This document shows positions 5,332 to 60,275 of a stretch of DNA of 64,000 nt, in pieces; within the stretch, counting starts at the first letter, position 1, and each line of letters opens with the position of its first letter. The position numbers and the translations under genes were made by a program. The stretch comes from an uncultured Spirochaetota bacterium (GTDB lineage: Bacteria; Spirochaetota; Brevinematia; Brevinematales; JAOACQ01). The notes under the pieces were generated by a model. The model saw only the letters and a list, made by a program, of their open reading frames with translations, ran no database searches and was not told the origin of the DNA. The stretch spans positions 320,001 through 384,000 of the forward strand of contig CAWAOD010000014.1 of NCBI GenBank assembly GCA_963783575.1, written 5' to 3'.

Positions 5332-5766
5332 GTGAAAAAAGACAATATCAGCGAGATATACTCAGCCCTTGATACGGCAAGGATCGAACTGCCAGAATAT
5401 ATAACAAGGATTTCCGCGGGTTTTCCATCGCCGGCAGACGATTATGTGGATAGAAAGCTGGATTTGAACGAATTCCTTATACGTCATCCGGCCGCCACAT
5501 TTTATGTAAGGGTGATCGGCGATTCGATGAAGAACGCTGGAATAAACTCCGGCGATCTTATCATTGTGGACAGGGCTATTGAAGCAGCAAACAACAGGAT
5601 CGTTCTTGCCGTCGTAAACGGAGAGTTCACTGTTAAGAGATTCGTTACCAGGGATAAAAAAGTTTTCCTTGTTCCAGAAAACCCGGATTATAATGAAATA
5701 ATTGTGACAGAGGATATGCAGTTTGAGGTCTGGGGCGTTGTCACAAACGTAATCCACGAGGTGTAG
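5332..5766 (+). CDS. umuD: Translesion polymerase V accessory subunit UmuD (S24 peptidase)
   Basis: SAGFPSPA autocleavage site, GDSM catalytic Ser, TVKR catalytic Lys; no LexA DNA-binding domain. Confidence 0.92.
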   Translation: MKKDNISEIYSALDTARIELPEYITRISAGFPSPADDYVDRKLDLNEFLIRHPAATFYVRVIGDSMKNAGINSGDLIIVDRAIEAANNRIVLAVVNGEFTVKRFVTRDKKVFLVPENPDYNEIIVTEDMQFEVWGVVTNVIHEV

Positions 5767-5770
5767 CGGT

Positions 5771-6451
5771 ATGTGCGGAAGATTCGCCCAGTTCAACCAG
5801 GGTATCGAGGGAAAATTCCAGGCCAAACCTAAGAAAAATACCGGAGAGCTTTTATTTAATTTCAATTACGCGCCCGGCAATAATATAAAGGCGATAGTCA
5901 AAGAGGGCGAGCGGTATATTGTTAATTACAAATGGGGTTTAACCGCAGACTGGACTATCCAAAAAAAACTAAATATTATAAATATCCGAAGCGATACACT
6001 AACAGAAAAAAACTCATTCCAGGATTTATTCAGGAATAAACGCTGTCTTATTATCGCCGACGGCTTCTACGAGTGGAAAAAAAGCGAATCCGGCAAAATT
6101 CCTTATTATATAACAATGAGGAATAAAGAAACTTTCGCTTTTGCCGGATTATGGAACAGCTGGATAAATACCGCCGGTATAGAAATTTTGTCCTGCGCAA
6201 TAATAACGACAGGCGCCAACGAGCTAGTCAGGAGAATCCATGATCGTATGCCGGTTATAATTCCGGAATCAGGCTATGACTTCTGGCTTGACAATACATC
6301 GTTCAATAAGGAAAAACTTGAGGTTTTGCTTGCACCTTGCGATCCGCAGCTGATGGATATGTACGAGGTCTCAGGTAAGGTAAATTATATAAAAACAAGC
6401 ACATCCGATTTAATCCAGCCTGTTAAAAACGATAATTTATTCCAGGATTAA
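5771..6451 (+). CDS. SOS response-associated peptidase (SRAP/YedK/HMCES family, abasic-site protection)
   Basis: N-terminal MCGRF (catalytic Cys2), RCLIIADGFYEW, IHDRMPVI. Confidence 0.92.
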   Translation: MCGRFAQFNQGIEGKFQAKPKKNTGELLFNFNYAPGNNIKAIVKEGERYIVNYKWGLTADWTIQKKLNIINIRSDTLTEKNSFQDLFRNKRCLIIADGFYEWKKSESGKIPYYITMRNKETFAFAGLWNSWINTAGIEILSCAIITTGANELVRRIHDRMPVIIPESGYDFWLDNTSFNKEKLEVLLAPCDPQLMDMYEVSGKVNYIKTSTSDLIQPVKNDNLFQD

Positions 6452-6453
6452 AA

Positions 6454-7737
6454 ATGAATAATATAAAGAAACATATATTCGCTCTGGTAGACTGCAATAA
6501 TTTTTACGCTTCCTGTGAAAGGGTTTTCAATCCAGCTATTGAAAAAAAGCCTGTTGTAATAATGTCAAATAACGACGGATGCGCCGTCGCCATGTCGAAC
6601 GAGGCCAAGACCATCGGAATAAAGATCGGAACGCCTATATTCCAGATGCAGGAACTTGTAAAAAAATACGACATTCAGGTTTATTCCTCAAATTACGCTT
6701 TATATGGAGATATGTCCAGCCGCGTTATGAATGTGATATCCGAATTCTCTCCGACTGTTGAGTTTTATTCGATCGACGAAAGCTTCCTGCTGCTTGATGG
6801 AATTAACTGTGATATGAATAATTACGGAAGAAAGATCAAAAAAACCGTAAAACAGTGGACGGGTATTCCTGTTTCCGTAGGGATCGCAGGAACAAAGACC
6901 CTTGCCAAAATCGCCAACAGGATCGCGAAGAAAGATGCCCAGTATAACGGTGTTCTTGATCTGACCGCCCACGCCGATATCGATGATTTTTTGAAAAAGG
7001 TCGCTGTTGAGGATGTCTGGGGAGTAGGATGGCAGAATACTAAAAAACTCAACAATTATGGCATACATACAGCCCTCGAACTGAAAAACGCCCCTGATCC
7101 CTGGATACGCCAGTACCTTGGCGGAATTGTAGGCTTGCGAACCATCTGGGAACTCCGCGGTATTTCCTGTATAACGCTTGAACTCGTCAGATCAGACAAA
7201 AAGCAGATCATATCCTCGAGGTCATTCGGAAAAATGGTGACTTCCATTGACGGATTGATTGAAGCCGTTTCAACCTACACAACGCGGGCAGCGGAAAAAT
7301 TACGAAGGCAGAATTCCCTTGCCGCAGAGTTGCAGTTATTTATCGGCACAAACCGTTTCAAGGACGAACCCCAGTATTTCAACACAGCGTCGTACAGCCT
7401 CCCTAACCCGACTTCCTATACACCGGAGCTGATAAGCCACGCCGTAAGCCTTCTTCAGAAGATTTACAGGGAAGGTTTCAGGTACAAAAAAGCCGGAATT
7501 GTTTTGTCAGAGATCATCCCCGAAAAGGAAGCGCAGGAAAGCCTCTTTTTTAACCGGGAAGCCTTTGAAAAAAAAGCCGGCCTGATGGACACGGTCGACC
7601 GCCTGAACACGAAATATGGGAGTAATACTCTTACCTACGCCAGCAGCGGCCTTGTGAATCCCTGGCAGATGCGCAGGGAAAGCCTTTCCTTCCGGTATAC
7701 AACCCACTGGAACGAAATACCGGTTGTGTTTATATGA
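6454..7737 (+). CDS. umuC: Y-family DNA polymerase V subunit UmuC
   Basis: ALVDCNNFYASCE, SNNDGC, YSIDE, SRSFG and C-terminal WQMRRE.LS.RYTT.W. Confidence 0.93.
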   Translation: MNNIKKHIFALVDCNNFYASCERVFNPAIEKKPVVIMSNNDGCAVAMSNEAKTIGIKIGTPIFQMQELVKKYDIQVYSSNYALYGDMSSRVMNVISEFSPTVEFYSIDESFLLLDGINCDMNNYGRKIKKTVKQWTGIPVSVGIAGTKTLAKIANRIAKKDAQYNGVLDLTAHADIDDFLKKVAVEDVWGVGWQNTKKLNNYGIHTALELKNAPDPWIRQYLGGIVGLRTIWELRGISCITLELVRSDKKQIISSRSFGKMVTSIDGLIEAVSTYTTRAAEKLRRQNSLAAELQLFIGTNRFKDEPQYFNTASYSLPNPTSYTPELISHAVSLLQKIYREGFRYKKAGIVLSEIIPEKEAQESLFFNREAFEKKAGLMDTVDRLNTKYGSNTLTYASSGLVNPWQMRRESLSFRYTTHWNEIPVVFI

Positions 7738-22956: not shown

Positions 22957-25905
22957 TTATAAACTTCTTTCTATATTAATTAGAATATACATCGCCAGAT
23001 ATGAAGTTAGCAATCCGATGTTAATATGTTTTTTATTATAAGTGGAAATAACAGCCTTAGCAACGTTAGATACATTATCAAGATAATTATCAAGGGTCTT
23101 CATACCGGTCATATCTCTTTTAATAGCTGCCTGCCAGCTTAAATTCCTGCCGACATCTTTGCGGGTCATAATTTCCTGAATGATTTTCTCATCATCTGCG
23201 GGTTTGATCGACCATTTCTTCAAATAAAAAGCAAGGTATTCCTTTTCATCATTAAATCCATCCTCTTGAAGCAGCGCTTTTTTAAAATAGGTGACTTTTT
23301 CATTTAACTTTATATCGGAATTAGCCCTGTTCGAGGTTCTGTCAGAACTTTGTTTTTGATGCGCATTAAACTGAACCGGTGATTTTTTTACCTGGAATAA
23401 TACATCCATAAGGTCTTTTCCCGGAGTTTTCTGTTGCTTATCATTGCTGGCCACATCGGCATTATTTGCATAAATTCCTTTATTATCGCGTTTCCCTCCG
23501 GATATACTTATTATATCATGTCTTATATTTGAAGTCCTGCCATAGTTTTTATGCTGATCATCCAGTATTTTCATTAAATACAGCCTGGCACCCATTTTTT
23601 TATTAAAAAAAGGAAACAGCTTAGACAAAAATGTGAAAAACCTTGTAAGAAAGTCATTTTTATTCCTCATCTGCCGGATTATATCAAGCCGTGTTACCCC
23701 GATGATACTGCTTAGTGGAATTTTGTTATCATCCCTGTCAAAAAATGAGGATGTTTTTTCATTATTTATACGAATCAAATATCTGAGAATTTCATTATTA
23801 GTCTCAAAAATGTTATCGATAACAAATAGTTCATTATAAAAATTTTGTATGCATTGAGATAAATAACGGGCAAAATCATCATCCGAATCAAGGGCATATA
23901 TAATATTCTGAGAATCGTCGCTCCAATTATTTTTTTCAAGCACATATGAAAGCCTCTGAATAAACGCAGTTTCCTTGATACCATATTGTTTATCCGTTAT
24001 TGCCTCGATATTTTTTTTGTAAAGTGCAAGTAGGTTTTTATTATGCACATAGCAGTATTCCAGTATTTTTGTCTTTTGATTTATAACCGGCAATTCAATA
24101 ATGAAATTATCAGGTTTATTCTGCAATGAATATTCATTAAGGAATGATGCCATAAATTCAGCAAATTTTCTACCGGAAATTGTTTCATCTTCAGAATCGC
24201 CTTTTTCAAGTTTATGCAGCCACTCTGATCTTATCGATTCACGCCATACTTTCTCTTTTGAATTAATCAGCTTTACCAGATTTTCACAAAACTCCTTTTT
24301 CTCTTCAATTTCTGTCTGTTTCTGTCTTCTCTGCAGTACAATCTGATACATCAGAGATACTGATTGAATTATTGCCCGGTCATTATTGTTATTTAGTTTA
24401 AGTATAGTACCAAGATTTTCATTCAGATCCTTTAATATAAAAAGCCAGTAATTTAAATCAGGATCTTTAACAGACCACAAACTGTTAATATCGATACGGT
24501 CTGTTGACAGAAGTAAATTAAGCGTTGGAGTGTTGTTAGGAAAGTTATTCTTTAAAAGACCGTTAATCCTGGATAAAATCATTCCATCAGTTGATATCGT
24601 ATTTATATCTGTTTCAATCCTGTTAAAGAATTGATAAATTTTTTGAGCTGCCATAGCCGGCAGCTTATTATAAAATGACTTCGGGATACATAAAAAATCC
24701 TGTACGTTATTCGTATATTCAATTGATATAATGTCCGTTGCTAAATCATTTGTTAGCGATTCCCGGCTTAATTCTTGATATTTTATAGGTTCGGGAAAAA
24801 ATCCGGATATGTTGGTTTTATTTTCACGAAGGTTGAATTGTAAACTTTTGAATGTTGGAAAAGGATAATCCTGATCATTAATAGTCTTTTGCATCTCTGC
24901 CTGTATTAATTCTTCCAATTTATGAATATTGTTTGATTTCATAAGTTCCTGTTGTTTATCAAATTTCTGCAAAAGAATAAATCTGCCTAAATCTTTCTGA
25001 TCACTTTCAATTATTAGTCGTTTTTCCGAAAGCAAAGCCAATAGATTTTCCAGAACAGAGTTTAATATCTTTTCGGTTGTAGGAAAGCTCCTTATATTCT
25101 TAGCACTTTGAGAAAGACTCCATTTTATAATAAACTCAAGAAAGGAATTATAATTTATCGGTTTTCTTGTCTGAACAGATTTATAGCAAAGAAGGTAAAA
25201 AATTGCCCTATCGACATCATTTTGTAAACCGATCATATCATATAAAGAATTTATGTCTGATAATGTATTCTTGGCAAGATTCCGGTCGGTTCTTACATTG
25301 ATATTAGCGTTTAATTCAACTAATTTTATTGCATAATCAGGAATAGTATATTTTTTAATAATTTCACTCCAATTCTCCGTATTATTCCCATCATCATAAT
25401 CAGTCCTATCATTTTCATTAAGATTTTCAATGGGAACCTTTTTTTCACCATAAGTATTTAAGGATTCATTTTTTAAACCATGATGAGCATAAACAAAATT
25501 CTCAATTTCACCGGGAAGGGTTGTTCTGAGAAATACTTCGAAATACCATTGAACAATTTTCCCCAAATCATTAAGGCATTGCTCTGTTGTTGAAATATCG
25601 ACCATTGAACCGTTATTGCCATATTCAGGGATTTTTTTAAAAATATTAAGAATATCCGATGATATTATATCACTATCTTTTATTACATTAATTAATTCAT
25701 TATATGAAAGTGCCTCAATTACATCATAAGGAAGGGCATCAATAATCTTTTTCTCAGCCCTGCAAATATTAAATGCAATCTCTTGAACCGCATGATTTGC
25801 TTCCTTTAAGCAATCGGCTAAATTGATAGCTGATTGTTTTTGAACAAGATTGATTTTTTCAATAATAGCTGCATGAAATTTTACAGGGAATGCATTTTCA
25901 GGCAA
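22957..25905 (-). CDS. Large hypothetical protein; N-terminus resembles a degenerate DUF4145/HEPN domain
   Basis: 982-aa ORF with a GGAGG RBS before TTG; N-terminal helical pattern ending IPEYGNNGS...CLNDLGKIVQWYF. Confidence 0.7.
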   Translation of the reverse strand: MPENAFPVKFHAAIIEKINLVQKQSAINLADCLKEANHAVQEIAFNICRAEKKIIDALPYDVIEALSYNELINVIKDSDIISSDILNIFKKIPEYGNNGSMVDISTTEQCLNDLGKIVQWYFEVFLRTTLPGEIENFVYAHHGLKNESLNTYGEKKVPIENLNENDRTDYDDGNNTENWSEIIKKYTIPDYAIKLVELNANINVRTDRNLAKNTLSDINSLYDMIGLQNDVDRAIFYLLCYKSVQTRKPINYNSFLEFIIKWSLSQSAKNIRSFPTTEKILNSVLENLLALLSEKRLIIESDQKDLGRFILLQKFDKQQELMKSNNIHKLEELIQAEMQKTINDQDYPFPTFKSLQFNLRENKTNISGFFPEPIKYQELSRESLTNDLATDIISIEYTNNVQDFLCIPKSFYNKLPAMAAQKIYQFFNRIETDINTISTDGMILSRINGLLKNNFPNNTPTLNLLLSTDRIDINSLWSVKDPDLNYWLFILKDLNENLGTILKLNNNNDRAIIQSVSLMYQIVLQRRQKQTEIEEKKEFCENLVKLINSKEKVWRESIRSEWLHKLEKGDSEDETISGRKFAEFMASFLNEYSLQNKPDNFIIELPVINQKTKILEYCYVHNKNLLALYKKNIEAITDKQYGIKETAFIQRLSYVLEKNNWSDDSQNIIYALDSDDDFARYLSQCIQNFYNELFVIDNIFETNNEILRYLIRINNEKTSSFFDRDDNKIPLSSIIGVTRLDIIRQMRNKNDFLTRFFTFLSKLFPFFNKKMGARLYLMKILDDQHKNYGRTSNIRHDIISISGGKRDNKGIYANNADVASNDKQQKTPGKDLMDVLFQVKKSPVQFNAHQKQSSDRTSNRANSDIKLNEKVTYFKKALLQEDGFNDEKEYLAFYLKKWSIKPADDEKIIQEIMTRKDVGRNLSWQAAIKRDMTGMKTLDNYLDNVSNVAKAVISTYNKKHINIGLLTSYLAMYILINIERSL

Positions 25906-33039: not shown

Positions 33040-35452
33040 GTGAAGATCAAAAAAAAGTCGCTGATAAATGGGTTAACCGGATCAGCTCTTTTAATTATTG
33101 TTAGTTTTATATTAATTACTGGAATAGAGCTGGAAAAAGAATCATATTATGAGATCCGGAATATCAATATTATTATTAAAAGTATAAATGAATTAAAAAT
33201 GATAACTTTAAATGGTATATTGAATCCTGATTCTATTAATCAAAATTACTGGGAAAGAAAATGGGAAGAACTGAATGATAACCTTTTAATGGAGAAAAAT
33301 AAAAGCAGGAACCGGAAATATATTAACCTTCTGATAGAAAAACATTTTGAAGCGAAAAATTTATATTCAGAATTAGTAAATAATATAAAACCGCATCAAG
33401 ATTCCATTATTTCAAATGATAAAAATAAGAGTTCAGTAAATCTTATAATTAATAACTTTTTATCCGAATACCAGCAGATAATTGATATTACCTCACATCG
33501 GTATGATGATATTCAAAAGAATATAATTATAATAAGTAATTTTAATATTGTTTTTATTATATCGATTTCTGCATTTTTATTTTTGTTAATATTGGTGTCA
33601 GCATTTTGGAAAATATTCACGCTTTCGGATGAAAACCTTGACTTTAGTATAAAAAGGGATGTGTTCGGGCAAAATCTGGTAAAAACCTCTCTTCTTGAAA
33701 GTGAAAATAAATACCGTCAATTTTTTGAGAAAGCACAGGAAGGCATTTGTTTTATCAATAATAACGGATTAATTCAATATGCAAATTCAAAAATGGCTGA
33801 TTTACTGGGTTATGTTATTGATGATTTGATAAGTCAGCCGTTTAACAAGTTTGTTGATCAATCGTCTCAGGAAAAATCAAAAAATATTTTTTCCTGTAAT
33901 ATTGAAGAGATTACTGATACAATAGAAATAAAACTAAAGAAAAAAGATGGATCGGAAATTTATACTATAATTTCAATTTCATATTTTAAGAATCAATCCG
34001 GTATTATAAAAAATATTCTCGCATTTTTGACAGATATTACTGATCGAAAACATATGGAAAATATATTTAAAGAAAACGAGGAAAAATACCGGCTTCTTTA
34101 TTCATCAATGAATGAAGGCGTAGGACTCCATGCAGATATTACTTGATGAATTTGGAATGCCGGCAGACTATCGTTTCCTTGATGTCAATAACAGCTATGA
34201 AAAATTGACTGGCTTAAACAGGAATGAAATCATAGGACGTACTGCACGCCAGGTTTTATTAATTCAGGATTCATTCTCAATTATTAATTATGGTGAAGTA
34301 GCTCTTACTGGAATACCAAAGCATTTTGAAAATTATTCAAAGGAAATGGGAAAATATTATGAAATATTTGCATACAGTCCAAAAAAAGGACTTTTTGCAA
34401 CAATTATTAATGATATTACTGAAAGAAAAGAAGCTGAACTTTATCTGCAGATGAATGAGGAACGTTATAGGGAATTGTTTGACGGCAGCAGTGATGGAGT
34501 CATTGTTTATGAAGCTGTTAATGACGGAAATGACTTTTTAATAATTGATTTGAACTTGGCGGTAGAAGAAATTGAAATTGTTAAGAAAGAAGACATTCTG
34601 GGTAAAAGCGTTCTGGAAATTTTTCCCGGCATCAAATCATTTGGACTATTTGATGTTTTGAAAAGAGTCTGGAAAACGGGCAAACCGGAACATTTCCCGG
34701 TATCTTTTTATCAGGATCAGCGTATAAGCGGCTGGAGAGAAAACTATGTTTACAGACTTCCTTCAGGTGAAATTGTTGCGATCTATGAGGATGCTACAAT
34801 ACGAAAAACCGCTGAAGAACAAATCAAATTATCTTTAAAAGAAAAAGAATTGCTTTTGAAAGAAGTTCATCACCGCGTAAAAAACAATCTTCAGATAATT
34901 TCCAGCTTACTTCATCTACAGGAAAAATATATTCGCGATAAAAATGATCTTGAAATTTTTCAGGACAGCCAGAATCGTGTAAAATCAATGGCAATGATCC
35001 ATGAAAAACTTTATCAGTCAGAAAGTTTTTCAAAAGTCGATTTTAAAGATTATATTCAAAGCCTAATCTCTAATTTATATTACTCATTCGGTATAAAAAA
35101 TGAAAGAATACAACTGGAAACACTGATTGATGAAATTTATTTTAATATCGATAAAGCAATAACCTGCGGACTATTATTAAATGAATTGATATCAAATTGT
35201 TTTAAACATGCCTTTCCGGATGAAAGAAAAGGAAAAATCAGTCTCAAAATAAAAAAAGAATTGCATAAATATTTATTGGTTGTAAATGATAATGGTATTG
35301 GCATAAATGAAAATATTGATTCAAATAGTACGGGGTCACTCGGCTTTCAATTAATAAACAGTCTTGTTGCTCAGCTTGGAGGATTTATGAATTATAAAAG
35401 TAATAAAGATGGCTTTTCTGGAACCGAATTTATTATTTCATTTCCCGAATAA
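33040..35452 (+). CDS. Membrane PAS-domain sensor histidine kinase (HisKA_2/HWE type), split by a 1-nt insertion
   Basis: Two TM segments, three PAS domains, EVHHRVKNNLQ H-box, NELISN, DNGIG, GSLG; removing the C at 34133 gives VGLHEILLDEFGMPADYRFL. Confidence 0.85.
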
Positions 35453-35460
35453 GATAAACC

Positions 35461-36406
35461 TTAAGAATGAAATTTTATTGAAGGAATAGATTCTTTTATT
35501 CTAAAGATGCCTGAAGATTCGCCGGTATTTTTATTTATATCGATAATTATTCCTTGTACTTCCATAGCTCCGCTCTCTTCTGGAGAAAATCTGACAGGAA
35601 GATGCTGGATAACTTTCCTGTATGAATCGGAAATTTTCATACCGATTACAGAATCGATCGACCCGCACATACCGATATCAGTTATGTATGCTGTTTTTTT
35701 CGTTAGGATTCTTTCGTCTGCAGTTTGTATATGGGTATGGGTACCCCAGACAGCACTAATCCTGCCGTCAAAGTACCATCCGAAAACTTGTTTTTCACTT
35801 GTCGCTTCTGCATGAAAATCCACAAGTATTATTTTAATCTTATCTTTTTTCAATTTTTCAATTTCTTTTTCAATGGTTTGAAAAGGGCAATCAACCGGAT
35901 CCATAAAAATCCTGCCAATAGCGTTTATTACTGCAGCCTTGATCCCGTTCTTCTCATAAATAAAAACTCCATGACCCGGGTGTATTCGGCGGATAATTGA
36001 TCGGACGTAAAAGACCGGGATACTTATCGAGAAATTCGAATACCTCTTTTTTTTGCCAGACATGATTACCGGTTGTAATTACATCTATCCCGCCTTCAAA
36101 AAGTTGTTTTGCTATAACGTTTGTAATTCCAAAACCATGAGCAGAATTCTCACCGTTTAATATTACCAGATCTGGTTCAATTGCAGTTTTTATCTTAGTG
36201 AATATTGTGAATAAAGCTTTTCTTCCCGGATCACCTATAATATCACCGAATGCGAGTACACGGAAAGAATTCTCATCTTTTTTATTTAATATTAATTCCT
36301 TTTGTTCTGCATAGACGCTTTTTAACAGCATTTCTTTTGACTGGTTGTTTAATATACTGCCAAGAGCCTTACCTGAATTATTTTGTGAATTCATCATTTT
36401 CCCCAT
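35461..36406 (-). CDS. ymdB: TIGR00282/YmdB family metallophosphoesterase, split by a 1-nt insertion
   Basis: GDIIGDPGR, NGENSAHG, TGNHVW, LRPINYP, then DFHAEATSEK, GTHTH, TDIGMCG; frames join at CCCGGG (about 35975-35980) as PPNTPGHGV. Confidence 0.88.
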
Positions 36407-36483: not shown

Positions 36484-36882
36484 TCAATTACTGCCATTTT
36501 CTTTCAATTCAAGCCGGTATTTCAGTTTAGGCTTTAAGATATTAAATTCTGATTGTAATAGATTGGTCAAAGTGGGATTCATTTCAATAATATACATTAT
36601 ATTCGTGTTTTTTGATGTAATTATATCGGTCGATAAGGTTTCCGGAAAATATGTTTCCAGAATATTCATTTCTTTATCAAGAAAGTACATTCTCATCGGA
36701 AGATAAGTATTTTTCATCCAGTAAGAAACTGTTTCAGGTCTATTATTAATAAAGATCATCCCGTCAATTTGTCCCCAGCTTTTTCTGAACATCATCCCCT
36801 TTTCTTTTTCAGCCTGAGAAACAGCAAGTTCAAAATTAAGAACATTTGTTATCAAAGTGATAGTTATAATTGTTGAAATCAA
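36484..36882 (-). CDS. DUF192 family protein
   Basis: ELA..AEKEKGMMFR...GMIF...YWMKNTYLP...YIIEMN. Confidence 0.85.
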   Translation of the reverse strand: MISTIITITLITNVLNFELAVSQAEKEKGMMFRKSWGQIDGMIFINNRPETVSYWMKNTYLPMRMYFLDKEMNILETYFPETLSTDIITSKNTNIMYIIEMNPTLTNLLQSEFNILKPKLKYRLELKENGSN

Positions 36883-37230
36883 TTTATTCTCCTACCTTAA
36901 AATAAATTATTATAATCAATATTTTAAATAATTTTCTTTTGATTATTATTATAAATAAATATTGAACAAATTTGAATAAATCTTTCTAAGATATTTTTAT
37001 TTTTATTTCAAATCCTTCCAAGGATTTTTTCAATATAGCATGCCAATAGTTTCCGGAATGTTCACCAATCAAATGTTTCCCAAACAATAAATTGAATCGA
37101 TTATTCAAGATTCGGAAGAATGTGTTTTTCACAGGAAGATGGGAAGCGATGTCCTGAGCAACGAAGGGTCTCGAAGAATCTTGGCCACGAATTGTACTAA
37201 TTAACAAGAATCAGAGAAAACCCTTGTTGG

Positions 37231-39780
37231 TTAGCTTACCTGGTTATCTTTTTTTGTTGAAGGCAGATATAAATAAAAAGCAGAACCTTTTCCTACAATA
37301 GAATCTACGCCGATATACCCGTTATGCTTTTTTATAATAGAGTAGCATATTGTTAATCCAAGTCCATGACCAATATCTTTTGTCGTGAAATAAGGATCAA
37401 AGATTTTCTGTAAATTTTCCGTTGGTATACCATGGCCATTATCACGGAATGTTAATTTAACATAATTGCCACTTATCAAAGGGATTGATTGATTATTTTC
37501 TTCAAGTTTTAAATTTTCCGCGGTAATAATAATTTCTCCCCCATCCGGCATTGCTTGACAGGCATTGATAACCAGGTTTTCTATTACCTGGCAAATTTGC
37601 ACCTCGTCCGCTTCTACCTCCCATAGATCATTGGGTATATAAAATTTACAAACCACATTTTTATTGTTTATAGTAAATTTTACAGTTTCACGAATTACTT
37701 CACCCAGAATAATACTTTTTTTATAGGTGATTGAGCCTTTGGAAAAAGTTAAAAATTGCCAGCTTAAATTCCTGGCCCTAAGCGATGCTTTTTCAGCTTC
37801 AGAAAGGAATTCATATACAGGTCCGACTGGCTGAATATTTAATTTTGCCAGAGAAATATTACCGATAATAGCAGTAAGAATATTATTCAAATCATGACCA
37901 ATTCCGCCAGCTAAAACTTCTAATGAATCCAGTTTATTGATTTTAAGCATTTCTTCTTCAATTATTTTTTTATTTGTAATATCTTCAGCAACACCAACAT
38001 AATTTGTTATTTTGCCTTGTGCGTTTTTAATAGGAGAAGCTGAAAAATAAAGCCAGATTTTTTTATCGTTTTCAATTGTTACAGATAGCTCCCCTCTGTA
38101 ATCATGGCCTCCAATCAGCATATCAAATATTTTATATAAATTTTCTTTGACTGCATTGTCAATATCTAAGTTAAATATATTATTGTTCTTTTCTGCATTT
38201 GGATCAAATCCCGTAACCTCAATAAATTTTTGATTAACATATTCTATATGTCCAGCAGTATCAATAACTACAACAAGAGCTGAACTTTGTTCAACGGCAC
38301 TGTACAAATTACGGAGCTGATCGGCGATTTTTTTCTGTTCCGTTATATCAAATCCTGAGCCCAGTATTGCTTTTCGACCTTCATAATATATTGTAGAAGT
38401 TGTAAGATCAATCCATCTTGCCTCCCCTTCTTTGTTTATCCATTTTAATTCATAACGAAAAGAAGGGATATTCTCCTTGGCTCTCTTGTTAATAATATCT
38501 TTAATCATATTATAATAATCCGGATGTATGAAATCGAATATTCTTTTTTGAGAGATTTCTTCTCTGGTATAACCGGATAATTTTTCCAGTGATGCATTAA
38601 CATAAATAATTTTTTCATCCTGAAAAATAAAAATTGAAGCGGCAGTATTTTCAACCAGCATTTTAAATTGCTCTTCACTTTCTTTTAATGCTAATTCAAC
38701 TTTTTTTCTATCTTCCATTTCTTTCTTTAATAAATTTTCCTGCCTCTTATCCTGGCCTAAAAAAAGTATTCCTGTAAGACCAATCTTATCATTACTGACG
38801 ACAAAACTAGTGAATAAAACCGGTAAAATATCCTGAAGTTTTGAAATCAGGTTTACTTCTAATGACCAATTATAAGGAGTTCTATTTTTTATTTTATCAA
38901 TCATATTCCGTATTGATTCTTTTTCAACTATGTAATTGGTTAAATTTTTACCCATCAGTTCATTTTCAGGATACCCGATGATCTTTTCCATCTGTTTATT
39001 TACTAATATGATACTACCCTCATAATCAACAAGAACTAAAATATCAAGCATACCGGACATAACTTCCTGAATAATTATTGCGGGAGTAAAATTCATCAAA
39101 CGGTATTTAACAATTGATAACCAGATGCTTATAAACCAGATAAGAATAAAAAAAGTACTGAGTGGCGGTAGAAAGCGAATATTTAATTGCGGCATTAAAA
39201 GATCAAAAATATATCCCATTAAAAATGTAATAATACCGCTATATAAAATAATCCTTGAAAGTCGTTTTTCCCTAATATTACTTGAATATTTTCCCCATAA
39301 CCACGTTAATACGACGCAACTCGATAAGAAAAAAATAAAATATACGTTATATGCCCAGTACCAAGGGGAATCAAGATAATATATAGCTTTCCATCCAAAA
39401 TTAGACAAAACAAAATCCTTCACTAAAAGGTTTCCATTTAACTCCTTAATATAAAAAACTGCTCCGGGAAGATAAAGAATCAAGTATAACCACCATTTCT
39501 GTAAAAGCTTTTTCTTATTTGTTAATATCAAGAAAAAATGCAATATTATTCCCTGAAAAAAACACCAGTTAAATGCAAATATATTGTGGAGTATAATTAT
39601 TGTTTTTTTATCTTTTAAAATATGAAAAAGTACATTATCAAAAGACCAGAATGCAAATGATAAGCTGAGAATAAAAAATATCTTATTTAAGTCAGATTTT
39701 TGATTTAATCTCAAAGTATATACACCGACTATTAGATAGATAATGAAAGCAGTAAAAAATAAATATGATAAAATCAGCAT
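37231..39780 (-). CDS. HisKA_7TM membrane sensor with three PAS domains and a histidine kinase (no receiver domain)
   Basis: About 7 TM helices (LNKIFFILSLSFAFWSF), PAS/PAC repeats, LAGGIGHDLNNILT H-box, NLVINA, DNGHG, DPYFTTK, GHGLGL. Confidence 0.9.
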   Translation of the reverse strand: MLILSYLFFTAFIIYLIVGVYTLRLNQKSDLNKIFFILSLSFAFWSFDNVLFHILKDKKTIIILHNIFAFNWCFFQGIILHFFLILTNKKKLLQKWWLYLILYLPGAVFYIKELNGNLLVKDFVLSNFGWKAIYYLDSPWYWAYNVYFIFFLSSCVVLTWLWGKYSSNIREKRLSRIILYSGIITFLMGYIFDLLMPQLNIRFLPPLSTFFILIWFISIWLSIVKYRLMNFTPAIIIQEVMSGMLDILVLVDYEGSIILVNKQMEKIIGYPENELMGKNLTNYIVEKESIRNMIDKIKNRTPYNWSLEVNLISKLQDILPVLFTSFVVSNDKIGLTGILFLGQDKRQENLLKKEMEDRKKVELALKESEEQFKMLVENTAASIFIFQDEKIIYVNASLEKLSGYTREEISQKRIFDFIHPDYYNMIKDIINKRAKENIPSFRYELKWINKEGEARWIDLTTSTIYYEGRKAILGSGFDITEQKKIADQLRNLYSAVEQSSALVVVIDTAGHIEYVNQKFIEVTGFDPNAEKNNNIFNLDIDNAVKENLYKIFDMLIGGHDYRGELSVTIENDKKIWLYFSASPIKNAQGKITNYVGVAEDITNKKIIEEEMLKINKLDSLEVLAGGIGHDLNNILTAIIGNISLAKLNIQPVGPVYEFLSEAEKASLRARNLSWQFLTFSKGSITYKKSIILGEVIRETVKFTINNKNVVCKFYIPNDLWEVEADEVQICQVIENLVINACQAMPDGGEIIITAENLKLEENNQSIPLISGNYVKLTFRDNGHGIPTENLQKIFDPYFTTKDIGHGLGLTICYSIIKKHNGYIGVDSIVGKGSAFYLYLPSTKKDNQVS

Positions 39781-40021
39781 ATATAGTAATCTTCCTTATT
39801 CAAAACTCTAATAAGTTTTATATCATTCAACGCCATTCCTTTTTCATTAAAAAACTCTTCTGCAGTAAGCCTTGAAAAATTAAGTCAGGGTAAGATACTT
39901 TACACAAAGACTTTCCAGAGCATGCCGAGCGGCTCAGATACAAAAATACCCTTAAATAAAATAAACAAAATTAAATATTCCGAGAAGTTTACTTTTTTCT
40001 GAAATATTTGAAAGCATTTCT

Positions 40022-40049
40022 ATTATAATATTACTAAATAAAATGTCAA
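40022..40049 (-). promoter_or_regulatory. Consensus sigma70 promoter of the 7TM kinase gene
   Basis: Minus strand TTGACA(40049-40044)-N16-TATAAT(40027-40022). Confidence 0.65.
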
Positions 40050-40198
40050 TACTTTTAATTATCTATAAATTTTACCAGAATAATCCTTAGTTTAAGTAGT
40101 CTATATTGTATTTTCCGAAGTGTTTATCGCAGGTCAAACTCCAGGATAATAATTGAAACAGGTATGCAGAAAAGTTAATTACTCAAGGAAGTTTTGTT

Positions 40199-41473
40199 TT
40201 AAAATATTTCCCGATCAGTCCTTAAATGACAATAATTTTTAATTGTCTCTTTAATATTCTTCTTATCTGCTCTTGAAATCTTTGTTATGTGAAAACCACA
40301 TAAAATTATTTCTTTGCTGGAATTGAACCATTTTAAATGGCATCCTCCGCGAATAAATCCTATCTGTGGAAAACAGATTATAAATTCAAATTCATTGTGA
40401 ATCGATTTTTCATCAGGCATTTCTTCAAGTTCAAGTCTGAAACCATCAAAAGAAATATCAAATAATTTAGCTTTGACATATTTTTCTTTCTTTATGTTCC
40501 ATAATGATATCGTACAATTTTCAATATTTAACGGATAAAATCGATGAGCCGGATTGGTTTTACTCCTACCTTCCCTTAGCCTTGTGAACAACTTTTTATT
40601 AATTAAACGCCCTTCCATCTCAAAATAAGTGCAGATTGTTCCATTTTGATAGATTGTCACATGAAAATCAACTGAAAGCCATTCTCCTTCTTTTCCTTTT
40701 TCATATCGGAAAAGCTCAGCTTTCATTCCTACAGGGTAGTTTAAATCCACATAATCATAAAATTTTGAATTGAATTGATTCATAATAAATTGTACGCCTC
40801 TTAATGGTACTTTACCGAAAACATGACAACATGCCGTTGTAAATTGCCTCGCTGCTTCCATGAGCATAATTCCTGGTACATGATCAATCGAATGTTCAAA
40901 AAAAAAGGGATGAGATGTATTAATTAATAGATTTGAATAAAAAATATTTTCAACTGGGATGTCTGGAATATCATTTATAATTTGAGCTAATTTAAATCTT
41001 TCAATATCAGAAATATAAATATCTTTCCTATTTAAAACAGAGTATATAGTCTTTCCTTCAACCTCAGAAATGTGTTGTTTTAAAACATATTTTCCTATAC
41101 TGATATTTTTTTGATAGAATTCCGATAATATTTTTTTTTCTTTTTGAGTAAGTTTACCTGTATTATCAAGATTTTCCATCAATTCTTCATCAATAAAATG
41201 TGGTATGTTAAACATTATATAGCATTCTTTATTTCTATTATTAGGAAAAAAATCATCTCCGAGAATTTCAGTGTTAATGGGATAATGCAGTATGTAATAT
41301 TCTAAGAAAATAGCACGGTCGGTAATTGACAGCCTGGGAATTATCAATTTTTCAGCTGTCTCCTTATCAAAATAAGCCGGTATTGCTCTGCGAAGATTTT
41401 TCACAAGAACATTCATTTCATCTTGTTTATGTACAATTTTTTTATCAAGAGAAACTTCAAGATTTGTCATCAT
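40199..41473 (-). CDS. AfsA/ScbA-related hotdog-domain protein with a C-terminal PilZ-like domain
   Basis: KKIVHKQDEMNVLV and HPFFFEHSIDHVPGIMLMEAARQ AfsA motifs; C-terminal RFYP...AKLFDISFDGFRL...KW...CGFHI PilZ-like pattern; AGAGG RBS before the ATG at 41473. Confidence 0.82.
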   Translation of the reverse strand: MMTNLEVSLDKKIVHKQDEMNVLVKNLRRAIPAYFDKETAEKLIIPRLSITDRAIFLEYYILHYPINTEILGDDFFPNNRNKECYIMFNIPHFIDEELMENLDNTGKLTQKEKKILSEFYQKNISIGKYVLKQHISEVEGKTIYSVLNRKDIYISDIERFKLAQIINDIPDIPVENIFYSNLLINTSHPFFFEHSIDHVPGIMLMEAARQFTTACCHVFGKVPLRGVQFIMNQFNSKFYDYVDLNYPVGMKAELFRYEKGKEGEWLSVDFHVTIYQNGTICTYFEMEGRLINKKLFTRLREGRSKTNPAHRFYPLNIENCTISLWNIKKEKYVKAKLFDISFDGFRLELEEMPDEKSIHNEFEFIICFPQIGFIRGGCHLKWFNSSKEIILCGFHITKISRADKKNIKETIKNYCHLRTDREIF

Positions 41474-41945: not shown

Positions 41946-43991
41946 ATGCCGGGGTCTTTAGAAATCATATATTATTCTATCAGCTCAAAAAAGAGGGAAG
42001 ATCTTATTTTTTGGATTCCTGAACTCTGGATGACTGAAAACGAAACTGCCATTATGGAAAAAAAACAAAAGCAAATTCGGGTAGAACCATATTCCTTTTT
42101 AACTTCTCAAATTAAAAAAATTCTTTCATTGAATAATAAAAATTACAACTATAATTCCAGCTTATCGAGTTTAAAAGAATACAAGTTTGATTCCGATAGA
42201 ATAATTGATGGTAAAATCAGGAGAAAACCAGGTGATTGGCTAATCGGAGCCTCAATATATGGTATAAACCTCCGTAATTTTTCGGCATATGACCATGATC
42301 AGGATGGAAAAATAGGTCATGGATCATGTGATGATATAACAATAAACAGTCAGGGAATAAGAGAAACCGGAACATTTATTAAGACTGCGGCTATACTTCC
42401 ATACATCAAATCTATGGGTTTTAATACCATTTGCCTGACTCCGGTAATGTTGACAGGTAAAGCATACAAATCCGGTGAATTGGGATCTCCTTATTCAATT
42501 AAAAATCCATTCAAACTGGATAATATCTATCATGATCCATTTATCAATGAAATACCAATAGAAATGGAGTGGAAAGCTCTTATTGAAGCCTGTCATATGA
42601 TGGATTTACGTATTATTCTGGACTTTACTCTTAAAACAGCCTCAAGGGATTCGGATTTCATACCGGAACATCCAGATTGGTTTTATTGGATTGATAATAC
42701 AGCTATATTAAATGATGACTCAAAATTCAATAATCAAAAAAGTAATAGTGATAAGTTAAGCAAAAAAAGATATACTCATTTTTTTGTAAATCCGCCGGAA
42801 AATAAAGATATTATTTTTGAGAATGAAAGTACAGGATATTTTATAAAATTTCAAAATAAAAAAGCAATTATACCCGAAGCTAATTCAATAATGGATAAAA
42901 TTAGCGATCTTTCAAATGATATTACCTTTTTTAAGCTTACTGATGAAATAAATGAGATTCCGAGTATCAATTCAAAATATGTTAAAAAATCGATTGATAT
43001 AAACACAAATTTATGGAAAACACTCGCCGGAATTGTTCCTTACTATCAGAAAGAATATGGTATCGATGGTGCAAAGTTTAACCAGAATGGATTCTTACCG
43101 CCAGGTTTGATGAAAATGGTTATAAATAATATTAGAAATACAGATCCTGATTTTGGTTTAATATCGGAAAATTTTGAACCGGATAAAAAAAACAGGGAAA
43201 ATGGTTATAATTTATCTTCAGGCAATTATCAGATAAATTTGTTTAAAATAAATCAAAGCAATAAGAAACATCAAAATCAATTGAAGACTTTTATTAATAA
43301 TTTAACAAATGTTCAATGTCCTGCACTGGGAGCGCCTGAAACTCTGGATTCACCAAGAGCTGCTGTCAGAAGAGGCGGAATAAAATTTTCTTTAGCCTCA
43401 TGGATTCTTGTGAATACATTACCCAATACAGTTCCATTCTGCAACTCCGGATTTGAATTGGGAGAAAAAAATCCTGATAGCCTTAATTCCGGTTTTAGTA
43501 TTGAAGAAAAAGAATCTATGATAAGAAAAAAATTAGGTTTATATGATGCTACAGCTTTAAACTGGGATTCAATTTCTGCTGATGAATTAATCGGTTTAAT
43601 AATAAAAATCAATAAATTCAGGCAGGAAAATATTGGAATTATTACTCATATAGATAATTTTTATCTTCTGGATTCGGAAGTGGATGGAGAATTAACATTG
43701 TCCCCTGAGAATCCTGTTATTGCTTATTTAAGGGCATTCAGGGATGAAATTATAAATTATATGGCAACCGGGATTTTCGGTGAAATTTTATATCCAATAG
43801 AGGTAGAAAACGATTACCTGATAGTTGTAAATATGGATTTTGAAAATGAAAGGATTGTTTCAATAAAAATGTGTGGTGATATGGCTTTTAATAACATATT
43901 CAAAGCCGAGGAATTGAAAACCGTAAATCAGGAATTAAATCTAAAGTTAAAACCCGGAGAATTTATAATAGCAGCAAGTATTTATAAATGA
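41946..43991 (+). CDS. GH13 alpha-amylase-family protein, maltosyltransferase-like, probably catalytically altered
   Basis: RETGTFIK...LPYIKSMG, GELGSPYSIKN, KTASRDS..I.EHPDWFYWI, GIDGAKFN, ETLDSPR. Confidence 0.8.
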   Translation: MPGSLEIIYYSISSKKREDLIFWIPELWMTENETAIMEKKQKQIRVEPYSFLTSQIKKILSLNNKNYNYNSSLSSLKEYKFDSDRIIDGKIRRKPGDWLIGASIYGINLRNFSAYDHDQDGKIGHGSCDDITINSQGIRETGTFIKTAAILPYIKSMGFNTICLTPVMLTGKAYKSGELGSPYSIKNPFKLDNIYHDPFINEIPIEMEWKALIEACHMMDLRIILDFTLKTASRDSDFIPEHPDWFYWIDNTAILNDDSKFNNQKSNSDKLSKKRYTHFFVNPPENKDIIFENESTGYFIKFQNKKAIIPEANSIMDKISDLSNDITFFKLTDEINEIPSINSKYVKKSIDINTNLWKTLAGIVPYYQKEYGIDGAKFNQNGFLPPGLMKMVINNIRNTDPDFGLISENFEPDKKNRENGYNLSSGNYQINLFKINQSNKKHQNQLKTFINNLTNVQCPALGAPETLDSPRAAVRRGGIKFSLASWILVNTLPNTVPFCNSGFELGEKNPDSLNSGFSIEEKESMIRKKLGLYDATALNWDSISADELIGLIIKINKFRQENIGIITHIDNFYLLDSEVDGELTLSPENPVIAYLRAFRDEIINYMATGIFGEILYPIEVENDYLIVVNMDFENERIVSIKMCGDMAFNNIFKAEELKTVNQELNLKLKPGEFIIAASIYK

Positions 43992-47908: not shown

Positions 47909-49635
47909 ATGAAAATTTCAGGAGCGGAAATTACAATTAAATTGCTGGAAAAACTGGGAATTAAAATAATTGCCGGTATTCCTGGAGGTTCAAATCTGCC
48001 GCTTTACGATGCGCTTTGCAAAAGCGGGATTCGTCATATACTGGCGCGTCATGAACAGGGAGCCGGATTCATTGCCCAAGGTATGGCAAGATCGACAGGC
48101 CGGCCGGCAGTTTGTTTCGCTACTTCAGGTCCCGGAGCCACAAATCTAGTCACTGCAATTGCCGATGCAAAACTTGACTCCATACCAATAATTGCAATAA
48201 CAGGACAGGTATCAACATCATTAATCGGTACTGATGCTTTTCAGGAAGTCGATACATATGGATTGACATTGCCTATAACAAAGCACAATTTCCTTGTACG
48301 AAAAGCCGAAGAGCTTATTTCGATTATTCCGGAAGCCTTTAAAATCGCAGGTGCGGGGAGGCCCGGGCCTGTTGTTATCGATATTCCAAAAGATGTTCAG
48401 CAGGAATCGATTGATTTCGCAATTTATAAGTATCCCGGTAAATTGCAAACTGCGTCCTGTTCACATATTAAAAATAATGAATCTTCTGACCATGAAATCC
48501 ACAGTAACTTAATCAATAATGCGGTGGAAATAATAAATAAATCAAGGAGACCGGTCATTATAAGCGGAGGCGGTGTAATAATTTCTGAAGCAAATTCATT
48601 ATTATATGAGCTGGCTCAAAAAAATAATATCCCGGTTGCATCCACACTTATGGGAATTGGAAGTTTCCCACAGATGATCCGCTCTATCTTGGAATGATTG
48701 GAATGCACGGAGCCCGTTATACAAATTTTGTACTTAATGAGTCTGATTTACTCATAGTTTTAGGCGCCCGTTTTGATGACAGGGCTACGGGAAATGTTAA
48801 GATGTTTTGCCCTGAAGCTTCGATTCTGCATATTGATGTCGATCCGTCTGAAATTGATAAAATAAAAAAATCAAATCTTTCCATAGTCGGAGATATAAGT
48901 AAAGTATTGGATAATATAATTCCTTTCATTAATAGAAATACAAGACAGGAATGGCTTACAAGAATAAATGATCTGATCCGGGAAAATCCTTCATTGCCGA
49001 ATTATTATACTGAAAAGCTTCATCCGGTGAGGATAATTAGAGAAATAGGCAAATTAGCGGGAATTAATGCGATTATTGCCACAGATGTTGGCCAGCATCA
49101 GATGTGGACCGCCCAATCCTACCCTTTCAGGAAACCCAGGACATTTTTAACATCAGGAGGGCTTGGTACAATGGGTTTTGGATTACCGGTGTCAATAGGA
49201 GCCGCTCTTGCAAACCCGGAAAAGCAGATAATATGCATCAGCGGGGATGGTTCTATTTTGATGAATATGCAGGAATTGGCCACTATGTCGGAACTCGGGC
49301 TTAAAATTAAGGTTATTATTATGAATAACGGTCATCTTGGCCTTGTCAGGCAACAACAGGAGCAATTTTACAGTCAAAATTATATTGCTTCCAGATTTAT
49401 TTCTAACCCGAATTTTACAAAAATCGGACAGGCTTTTGGGATAGACAGCTGCGATTTATGTGAAAATGATAATTCATCGGACATTCTTGAAAAAGCATTA
49501 TTATCAAACGGACCGTATTTAATTAATGCCCATGTCCCGCAGGAAATAAACGTTGCGCCGATTGTACCGCCTGGATCTGCTAACACTGAAATGATTGGTG
49601 GTGAATATTATGACAGACAGGTTATATCAATATGA
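47909..49635 (+). CDS. ilvB: Acetolactate synthase large subunit, split by a 1-nt deletion
   Basis: RHEQGA, TSGPGATN, GTDAFQE, MIGMHG, RFDDR, DVGQHQMW, SGDGS..MN.QEL, NNG.LG.VRQ; one extra C at about 48667-48669 restores SFPTDDPLYLGMIGMHG. Confidence 0.92.
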
Positions 49636-58722: not shown

Positions 58723-60275
58723 TTAATTATAAGTCTGCATTTCTTCATTCAATTTTTCTAACAATCTTTTTTCTGCGGTTGAAATGGCCTGGGCTATATT
58801 CAAACCCTGACCTTTTACAGAAATTGTTAAACCCTTGACAACATTATTTGTTTCAACATCAATCATCGATAAAATAAGTTTCATATCAACTATCACGATA
58901 TCGCTTGCATTTACATCATAACTTTGAAAAGTTATATCTTTACCTATCTGGCCTAATACATTTATCTCACGGATACCCAAAAGAAATCTTTTAACCTGGG
59001 GACTCTTAACCTTCATATTCTTTAAAATTAAAGCTTTAATCTGATCTTCATTCATGCCCTGAATCGAAGAATTGTCAGGCAGTTCTATAGATATTATATT
59101 ATAACCCCTTTCCGCAAATTTTCCGGAAACCGTTTCCTGAAATTGAGGAATAAATTCCCTTTTTTGTTCTTTTTTATCGTCGTAAAGTATATCAATTATA
59201 CCAATTCCTGTGGGTATTACTTTATCATGATTTACTACAGTTAAATTAACCTGCAATGCCTGAGATTTCTGAAATTTCAAAATCTGCGAATAAAAATCTT
59301 CATCGAACTTCATTATATTATCAAATTTATCAGCAGAGAAAGTTACGGTAATGGATAACTTGTCGGTATCAGATCTTAAAATGCGATCCGCGGTAAAATT
59401 GACAAGACCCTGATCGTCACTGATATTTCCGGATTTAGTAATAATATTTGCATTGGAATTATTTTCGGTAATTAATAATGTAAAGCCTGGAACTCCCTTT
59501 CCAATTTTTGAGGATGATGTTTTGACTAGTATTGGATCGCTGCCGCCTTCAATGAAAGCATATCTGGAAGAACTTTCAAGAGAGAATGTTATGCTTGAAA
59601 GTATAAGTGTTATAATATTTCTGGATTCATCGTAAAGATCCGAGTTTTCTGCTGCTTTTTCGCTGATTATCAGAGCGCCTAGCGATAAATCAAGGGCTTT
59701 TGCAAGTTCACCGTTTTTGATGGCAGCATCGGCTTCAGTCAGGTATTGGGTTGATGTTGATCTTTGGTCGCTTACCAGTTTCTGGAGCCTATTTCTTTCT
59801 TTATCAATCCAGCTTTGTGGAAACTTTATTAATGAATACATTATAATCGTATTATCTGAATATTGTTCATAATACACATCTTCAAGATCAACGGCAACAT
59901 TCGCGCTGCCTTTCCCCTCGATGGTTTGAATTATATCCTCTTTAAAACTGGAAATGTTGTCAAGATCGGCCATTTCTTTCCTGGATTGAAATTTTGTTGT
60001 AGCCCTTACCCCGATATAATCAACCAATTGTGTAGTAGCGTCATTAATAGATTCACTTTTAGCCGATTTAAGATCGGCAGATTTCGAACTGATTCCTACA
60101 AAATAAATATAAGCACCGCCGCTTTTTTCTTCAATATCCAATCCGGTTCTTTCGGAGCAGATGTTTTAATTACTTTCGGCGGCTCATTTGCTTTTACAAT
60201 TGTATTTTGATCATTGCAGGATATAGCTGTAACTAAACCTAAAATTATTATCACTTTTAATAAAACACTTTTCAT
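58723..60275 (-). CDS. LPP20-like lipoprotein, split by a 1-nt homopolymer deletion
   Basis: AAGGAG RBS, then MKSVLLKVIIILGLVTAISC lipobox...PDWILK; one more A in the A6 run (60123-60128) joins it to SGGAYIYFVGIS...A...A. Confidence 0.75.

Follow-up and report, generated by a model that had tools for sequence, protein, structure and literature searches.

When a gene for an AfsA-type signal synthase lies next to a gene for a seven-transmembrane (7TM) histidine kinase, does the kinase read the product of its neighbour? The question is raised by a stretch of 64,000 nucleotides from an uncultured Spirochaetota bacterium (the window: assembly GCA_963783575.1, contig CAWAOD010000014.1, positions 320,001 to 384,000), for which a preliminary description had proposed that an autoinducer made by the synthase is sensed by the adjacent kinase. 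The comparisons presented here indicate that the 7TM kinase is very probably a bystander of the synthase system. They point to a butenolide-type synthase system with linked non-TetR sensors, from which the 7TM kinase stands apart, and we regard this whole explanation as standing an even chance of being correct.

Both genes are real and lie where the preliminary description had placed them. The synthase gene (40199..41473, minus strand, 424 amino acids (aa)) encodes a single hotdog domain with a repeat-containing insert, followed by a degenerate PilZ domain; it starts with ATG at 41473, preceded by AGAGG at 41485-41481, and its VHK motif (from 41434) and EAARQ motif (40858-40844) occupy exactly the positions claimed for them. 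The kinase gene (37231..39780, minus strand, 849 aa) lies downstream, and the spacing, given earlier as about 420 bp, is 418 bp. According to Pfam, the kinase is composed of HisKA_7TM (residues 9-233; PF16927, 37.5 bits against a cut-off of 28.6), three PAS domains, HisKA and HATPase_c (E 6.9e-23), with GHDLNN as its H-box. The promoter ascribed to the kinase was recovered as a consensus sigma-70 match (TTGACA-16-TATAAT, 40022..40049, minus strand) directed into the kinase gene; it is a pattern match only, the sole 12/12 match in a scan that returned 43 sites versus 32.3 +/- 6.8 in shuffles. An operon of synthase and kinase was rejected on the 418-bp gap with its promoter match, although a search of the gap gave no terminator-like site; neither there nor elsewhere in the window did Rfam recognise an RNA element. 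The absence of a TetR gene from the window was also borne out (no TetR_N match), but it says little because the genome has 31 TetR_N domains elsewhere.

For the comparison of neighbourhoods, 71 synthase loci were collapsed into 51 groups at 90% identity, 40 of them with flanks of 8 kb or more; five forms that are short or lack PilZ (L028, L107, L110, L179 and L180) were dropped before grouping. The sole other genome of this genus searched, G025, is 57% complete and keeps the gene order radA-like, NHL protein, ruvA, amylase, a variable slot, 7TM kinase, DUF192 and YmdB, its kinase orthologue being 53% identical over 849 aa. In the window this slot lies between an alpha-amylase-like gene (41946..43991, plus strand) and a DUF192 gene (36484..36882, minus strand), and the kinase is a resident of that locus. 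The slot in G025 holds, upstream of the kinase, a gene for a 219-aa HD hydrolase, to which nothing in the window genome matched, and the G025 synthase is on a different contig (L002), beside a lipoprotein, the phosphatase-type gene HAD-A and a HAMP-PAS-kinase-receiver protein. This synteny rules out adjacency as evidence of pairing. The proposal had named conserved adjacency as its test, and adjacency is broken within the genus and occurs in only 2 of the 51 groups, the window and L026, where a HisKA_7TM-PAS-LuxR gene lies immediately upstream of the synthase homologue and is 26% identical to the window kinase in its 7TM part. Within about 10 kb of the synthase, 7TM genes were found in 6 of 40 groups, four of them of one lineage. 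In these four leptospiral loci a HisKA_7TM kinase is encoded 7.5-8.4 kb downstream, past a giant sensor gene, acpS and a bactofilin gene, and its 7TM part gave no BLAST match to that of the window kinase at E 1e-3; the profile count caught two of these four kinases, and a separate 7TM search caught all four. HisKA_7TM domains number 16 in the window genome, with 13 matches in G025, and the chance of finding one within 10 kb is about 6.5% by a hand estimate from the 16 domains. Among the control loci, a 7TM gene was likewise present in one of 23. The window kinase should thus not be the first choice when the receptor is pursued.

The claim that the synthase carries AfsA hotdog motifs stood as far as the motifs themselves are concerned, but the single hotdog, an insert of about 145 aa and a C-terminal PilZ fold had been overlooked. 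Pfam AfsA (PF03756) matches residues 175-288 (E 6.5e-19), and its 68.7 bits, well above the cut-off of 24, uphold an AfsA-type enzyme; no match to the FabA/FabZ family was obtained in Pfam at E 0.01. With the NCBIfam model NF041195 (ScbA_BarX) the protein reached 60.4 bits, below the cut-off of 200, and two tandem AfsA repeats per chain do not occur in it, since there is one Pfam stretch and one hotdog in the model. An AlphaFold model built on an 88-sequence alignment (predicted local distance difference test, pLDDT, 90.8) forms the hotdog from residues 6-31 and 176-292, which match FabZ with Z 15.2 (root-mean-square deviation (rmsd) 2.5, 135 residues aligned) and FapR with Z 12.7; no solved structural relatives were found by sequence. 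The N-terminal part (residues 6-31, 41381..41458, minus strand), with residue 6 as the start of the FabZ alignment, holds the VHK..N motif with H15 and K16, conserved in 82 and 79 of the 88 aligned members. The core (residues 176-300, 40574..40948, minus strand), supported by PF03756 and conservation, holds HxFFFEHxxDHVPG and E206-x-x-R209-Q210, with H198 present in 87 members and E206 and R209 in all 88. Between these parts lies the insert (residues 32-175, 40949..41380, minus strand), found in all 88 members at a length of 104-162 aa and made of two tandem repeats of about 35-45 aa and two helices; its halves align to each other in hhalign with a probability of 96% (E 3e-9). Folded alone, the insert reached pLDDT 80.4. 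No chain among 48,161 matched it at Z 5 or more, and no Atlas match was found from 0.9, negatives that show neither novelty nor the absence of a known fold.

The chain ends in a PilZ-fold barrel (residues 306-418, 40220..40558, minus strand), recognised by its structural match to MotI (Z 12.8, rmsd 2.5, 103 residues aligned) and the PilZ domain of PP4397 (also Z 12.8). The Pfam PilZ model at residues 330-409 scores 16.7 bits against a cut-off of 22.5, which several homologues exceed. In the window protein the DxSxxG motif is intact (DISFDG) and RxxxR lacks its first Arg (NPAHR); throughout the family [DN]xSxxG is present in 51 of 88 members and a full RxxxR in one. Gating of the synthase by cyclic di-GMP (c-di-GMP) through this domain was dismissed on the incomplete RxxxR motif, and the role of the PilZ part is probably structural or one of binding proteins, rather than that of a canonical c-di-GMP receptor. 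The homodimer was predicted with a score of 0.66 (best control 0.01). Of 30 solved pairs, 20 attain the mark that this score passes, as does 1 of 23 single chains; the runs agreed in no less than 61% of contacts, with pLDDT of at least 75. Because hotdog dimers are already solved, this pass may reflect memory. The predicted interface contains K16, N21, E193, H194, D197, E206, R209 and R300, so that two chains may together rebuild the two-repeat active site of AfsA. Some homologues are fused, one to an acyl carrier protein (ACP) and another to HAD-B, the fused HAD-B having its first Asp replaced.

The AfsA-insert-PilZ family comprises 108 representatives (50% identity) at E 1e-30 or better, and its named close loci are from Spirochaetota metagenome-assembled genomes. 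Of 401 genomes searched in the phylum, a match to the synthase at E 1e-15 was obtained in 54; two short forms with neither insert nor PilZ and one N-terminal remnant were set aside, leaving 51. The synthase is present in 31 of 31 genomes of g74, a genus-level group of Leptospira, and in none of 19 of g23. The L165 protein is identical to the record LEPBI_I2648 of Leptospira biflexa, a sequence that occurs within g74, and members of the synthase cluster come from saprophytic species and are named 'AfsA-related hotdog domain-containing protein' or 'PilZ'. RNA contigs from two runs span the L165 stretch and those from two others part of it; such contigs cannot show transcription or an operon. A locus scan with a single protein gave no result. 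In Campylobacterota and Burkholderiales, short AfsA proteins with a single hotdog (L031, L033, L039 and L040-L062) adjoin a flavin oxidoreductase, and several histidine kinases also lie near the one in L039.

Across the 40 groups with sufficient flank, the enzymes encoded near the synthase are HAD-A (15), HAD-B (14), SDR (14), IspH-like (7), NmrA (4) and acyltransferase (4) proteins. A linked phosphatase and reductase were found in 32 of the 40. IspH-like genes occur in 8 of the 51 groups, none of which has a HAD gene. HAD-B is present in 10 of 401 genomes, all of which have the synthase. The sensors are a giant protein (23 groups), a lipoprotein/HAMP type (6) and a multi-transmembrane methyl-accepting chemotaxis protein (4), and at least one of these three non-TetR types lies within 10 kb in 33 of 40 groups, which favours the general idea, already put forward in the preliminary description, that the reader of the product is not a TetR protein. 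One TetR gene was noted near a homologue (L027); not all other loci's neighbours were scanned for TetR. The giants are Pkinase-AAA_16-TPR-GAF proteins of 1700-2150 aa that end in PP2C, histidine kinase-receiver, Hpt-ATPase or GGDEF-EAL domains, and the 24 long copies listed have the Walker A motif GxxGxGKS/T. In all but two groups the giant is either downstream on the same strand or divergent. The lipoprotein/HAMP type is represented by a lipoprotein that weakly matches Cache-type domains, by a HAMP membrane sensor, or by both. In g74 the order synthase, SDR, giant is consecutive in 31 of 31 genomes, with the giant following the synthase at a distance of 0.8-1.6 kb; these rows count as one event because they are one inheritance. 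In four of the five g74 genomes checked, the giant of this row is the sole AAA_16 giant at E 1e-15. In a quick tree, the kind of tree used for the synthase as well, the synthase-linked giants split into two subclades (SH-aLRT 96 and 91) and a single branch apart from them. At 23 control giant loci, no HAD-A, HAD-B or synthase was found, compared with five SDR genes and one IspH-like gene.

These associations make it plausible that the synthase family is a butenolide-type signalling system without TetR. We consider it likely that the dimeric synthase makes a butenolide phosphate from dihydroxyacetone phosphate (DHAP) and 3-ketoacyl-ACP. A phosphatase (HAD; here a histidine phosphatase) and an SDR would then mature the product, in the manner of SabP and SabD, and the linked phosphatases imply that the product is phosphorylated. 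A linked non-TetR sensor would read it: in most relatives the cytoplasmic Ser/Thr-kinase-STAND-TPR-GAF giant, and in the closest relatives of the window synthase the lipoprotein with the HAMP membrane sensor. Whether such a sensor is the reader we judge to be about an even call.

In the window genome, which has one synthase copy, the module is broken up: the linked phosphatase and reductase are absent from the window, with candidates on contig C13. The slot of the synthase would be a variable one, remote from the partner genes, for which the best candidates lie at G000:C13:88253-96101, a row of a histidine phosphatase, an acyltransferase, two SDRs, a lipoprotein, a STAS protein, an anti-sigma-type kinase and a HAMP-PP2C sensor; the longer interval G000:C13:88253-98888 (L086) additionally includes a hybrid kinase. 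The nearest homologues of the synthase, L001 and L002, carry the lipoprotein/HAMP pair, and the only copy of the HAMP-sensor domain in the window genome is at C13:94179-96101, 52% identical and with a PP2C output. C13 also has the genome's best matches to the linked acyltransferase and SDR (one of the two SDRs, 52% identical). The C13 genes are likely to be displaced partners of the synthase. The giants of the window genome were rejected as receptors: the nearest, on C3, is placed apart from the synthase-linked subclades, a grouping of weak support (83-87), and four others form a separate clade.

Several observations weigh against this butenolide signalling explanation. The loci on which neighbours were counted had also supplied the neighbour profiles, and many of these loci are kin. 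Seven of the 40 groups have none of the three sensor types. Giants are present in 178 of 401 genomes, compared with 51 for the long synthase, and HAMP-sensor domains in 9 of 401, only 3 of them with a synthase. The giant orthologue at L216:10117-15942 has no synthase beside it, and that at L184:9784-15693 has only an N-terminal synthase remnant, both apparently cases in which the synthase was lost and the sensor kept. In the window genome, the C13 lipoprotein is just 23-29% identical to the linked lipoproteins, HAD-B survives as a truncated and frameshifted remnant beside a transposase (G000:C10:58168-58858, L087), no HAD-A or IspH-like match was obtained, and the C3 giant lies outside the synthase-linked subclades in the quick tree. 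The truncated HAD-B, the missing HAD-A and IspH-like genes and the position of C3 suggest that the pathway may be decaying here. Finally, LEPBI_I2648 is expressed (log counts per million 8.0) and rises from 48 h to 120 h of planktonic culture by a log fold change of +0.32 (false discovery rate 0.008), and it is absent from the biofilm comparisons listed in the same table (PMC4863578 Table S5). So small a change counts against strong autoinduction. The surroundings of L087 include a PKS-like cluster and two 7TM-PAS-LuxR genes.

Three other explanations have to be set against a sensor-linked butenolide system. That the adjacent HisKA_7TM-PAS kinase is after all the receptor, the pairing being recent in this lineage or the kinase one of several interchangeable receptors, is the least probable, and we regard it as improbable. 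The two genes are neighbours on one strand, a 7TM-PAS-LuxR gene directly precedes the synthase homologue in L026, the four leptospiral loci have their 7TM kinase downstream, another 7TM-PAS-LuxR gene lies 1 kb from the HAD-B remnant, and the family plainly exchanges sensor types; yet in G025, where the synthase lies on a different contig, the orthologous kinase is still in its place after a gene for an HD hydrolase, the abundance of 7TM domains in both genomes makes chance proximity cheap, the leptospiral and L026 kinases resemble the window kinase poorly or not at all, the kinase has its own promoter match, and a 7TM gene occurs at a control locus too. Only slightly less improbable is a FabZ-like dehydratase or thioesterase, or a FapR-like acyl-ACP sensor, in which the PilZ domain and the insert would be regulatory parts of an intracellular lipid-sensing circuit. 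The best structural matches, FabZ and FapR, the single hotdog shared with FabZ and the low ScbA_BarX score are what such a protein would give, but FabZ is the expected top match, since no ScbA-family structure is solved (PMC13454427), Pfam assigns AfsA and not FabA/FabZ, and the linked phosphatases imply a phosphorylated product.

The strongest of the three, though still unlikely, is that the system makes a butenolide-type specialised metabolite or lipid, such as an antimicrobial or a membrane component, with no signal to self, and that the sensors regulate the cluster by another cue. AfsA-like domains do give non-signal products in Gram-negatives (PMC7756379; 10.1101/766410), the acyltransferases and the ACP fusion suggest further elaboration, and the slight shift of LEPBI_I2648 with culture age is unlike that of a strongly autoinduced gene (PMC4863578). 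Against it, the cassette is minimal (synthase, phosphatase and reductase), and its most constant neighbour is a sensor, often divergent within 0.2-2 kb, as in signal/receptor pairs.

A broader form of the butenolide signalling explanation, which we hold only tentatively, is that free-living spirochaetes including L. biflexa use a butenolide or butyrolactone autoinducer, that an AfsA-insert-PilZ synthase makes it as a homodimer, that a plug-in non-TetR receptor reads it, mostly the cytoplasmic Ser/Thr-kinase-STAND-GAF giant with its exchangeable output, and that the giants of the pathogenic lineage are wired to a FabH-type cassette. If true, this would provide the giants with their first ligand class and free-living spirochaetes with a signal between cells; saprophytic and pathogenic leptospires would differ in their chemical language, and three genes of the harmless, genetically tractable L. 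biflexa would serve as a test case. Leptospira of other lineages, some of whose proteins carry the names of pathogenic species (L230, L239, L240 and L244), have a kinase-STAND-GAF-PP2C giant gene preceded by genes for a FabH-like ketosynthase and a CoA transferase (e.g., L240:7408-17856); the thioesterase and SDR genes are divergent, and downstream lie genes of the DUF6272/SiaC type. This row is a candidate for a second acyl-signal cassette on the same receptor chassis.

Elsewhere in the window, a PAS-HisKA_2 kinase (33040-35452), YmdB (35461-36406) and acetolactate synthase (47909-49635) are each split into overlapping open reading frames, likely through assembly indel errors; YmdB is a single open reading frame in G025. 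Open reading frames of 982 aa (22957-25905) and 472 aa (58723-60141) have no Pfam match at E 0.01. A short intergenic element 3' of the kinase (37122-37222) has five similar copies on other contigs, and genes for a UmuD-like S24 peptidase, an SRAP protein and a Y-family polymerase follow one another at 5332-7737 as an SOS mutagenesis cassette.

The closest known counterparts of the family are the phosphorylated-butenolide synthases AfsA, ScbA, SabA and MmfL of Streptomyces, with which it shares the PF03756 hotdog with ExxRQ, and its phosphatase and SDR partners parallel the SabA/SabP/SabD set; a synthase, a phosphatase and a reductase are what the SAB butenolides require (PMC7756379). ScbA requires E78/R81 and E240/R243 (PMC13454427), to which E206/R209 would correspond by the ExxR motif. 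AfsA/ScbA enzymes have two hotdog repeats (PMC8209734), whereas the window family has one, together with the repeated insert of about 145 aa and the C-terminal PilZ domain, and the window synthase falls far below the ScbA/BarX cut-off. The family would work like the AfsA/SabA cassette, yet is not a member of ScbA/BarX. AfsA-type hormones act via TetR repressors in actinomycetes. Unlike the Streptomyces systems with their ArpA/ScbR receptors of the TetR type, the window family has recurrent kinase or phosphatase sensors.

AfsA-type chemistry outside Actinobacteria is known from the PBS domain of gladiostatin, where it serves chain release (PMC7756379), and from the SPOA0342 killing cluster of Ruegeria (10.1101/766410), and PF03756 has been reported in 12 phyla (PMC8209734, in whose main text 'spiroch' does not occur). 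These Gram-negative clusters contain polyketide synthases or a transcription-factor cassette, which the window family lacks, having a fused PilZ domain. The predicted barrel resembles the PilZ receptors YcgR, MotI, PP4397 and PlzA (Z 12-12.8) and shares their [DN]xSxxG in the 51 members counted above, but differs in the near-absence of a complete RxxxR; PilZ variants with an incomplete RxxxR are classed as non-binding in Leptospira (PMC12943098, in the available text of which AfsA does not occur). The presence of PF03756 outside Actinobacteria is thus already known. In the literature outside subscription papers, no AfsA-type autoinducer of Leptospira was found described, nor was the AfsA-insert-PilZ family or its link to the giants, although most supplements could still list the genes.

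Synthase-kinase pairs in which a lipid-derived signal is read by a kinase do exist, namely CqsA/CqsS and LqsA/LqsS. They differ in the chemistry of the synthase, and the adjacency of synthase and 7TM kinase seen here is not conserved. The giants have the same chassis as the Spirochaetota Pkinase-AAA_16-TPR-GAF 'multi-domain signal transduction' proteins, annotated as 'AAA family ATPase', for which no ligand was assigned in the literature covered; what sets them apart is the linkage of two of their subclades to a small-molecule synthase, and of a sister clade to a cassette with a FabH-like ketosynthase.

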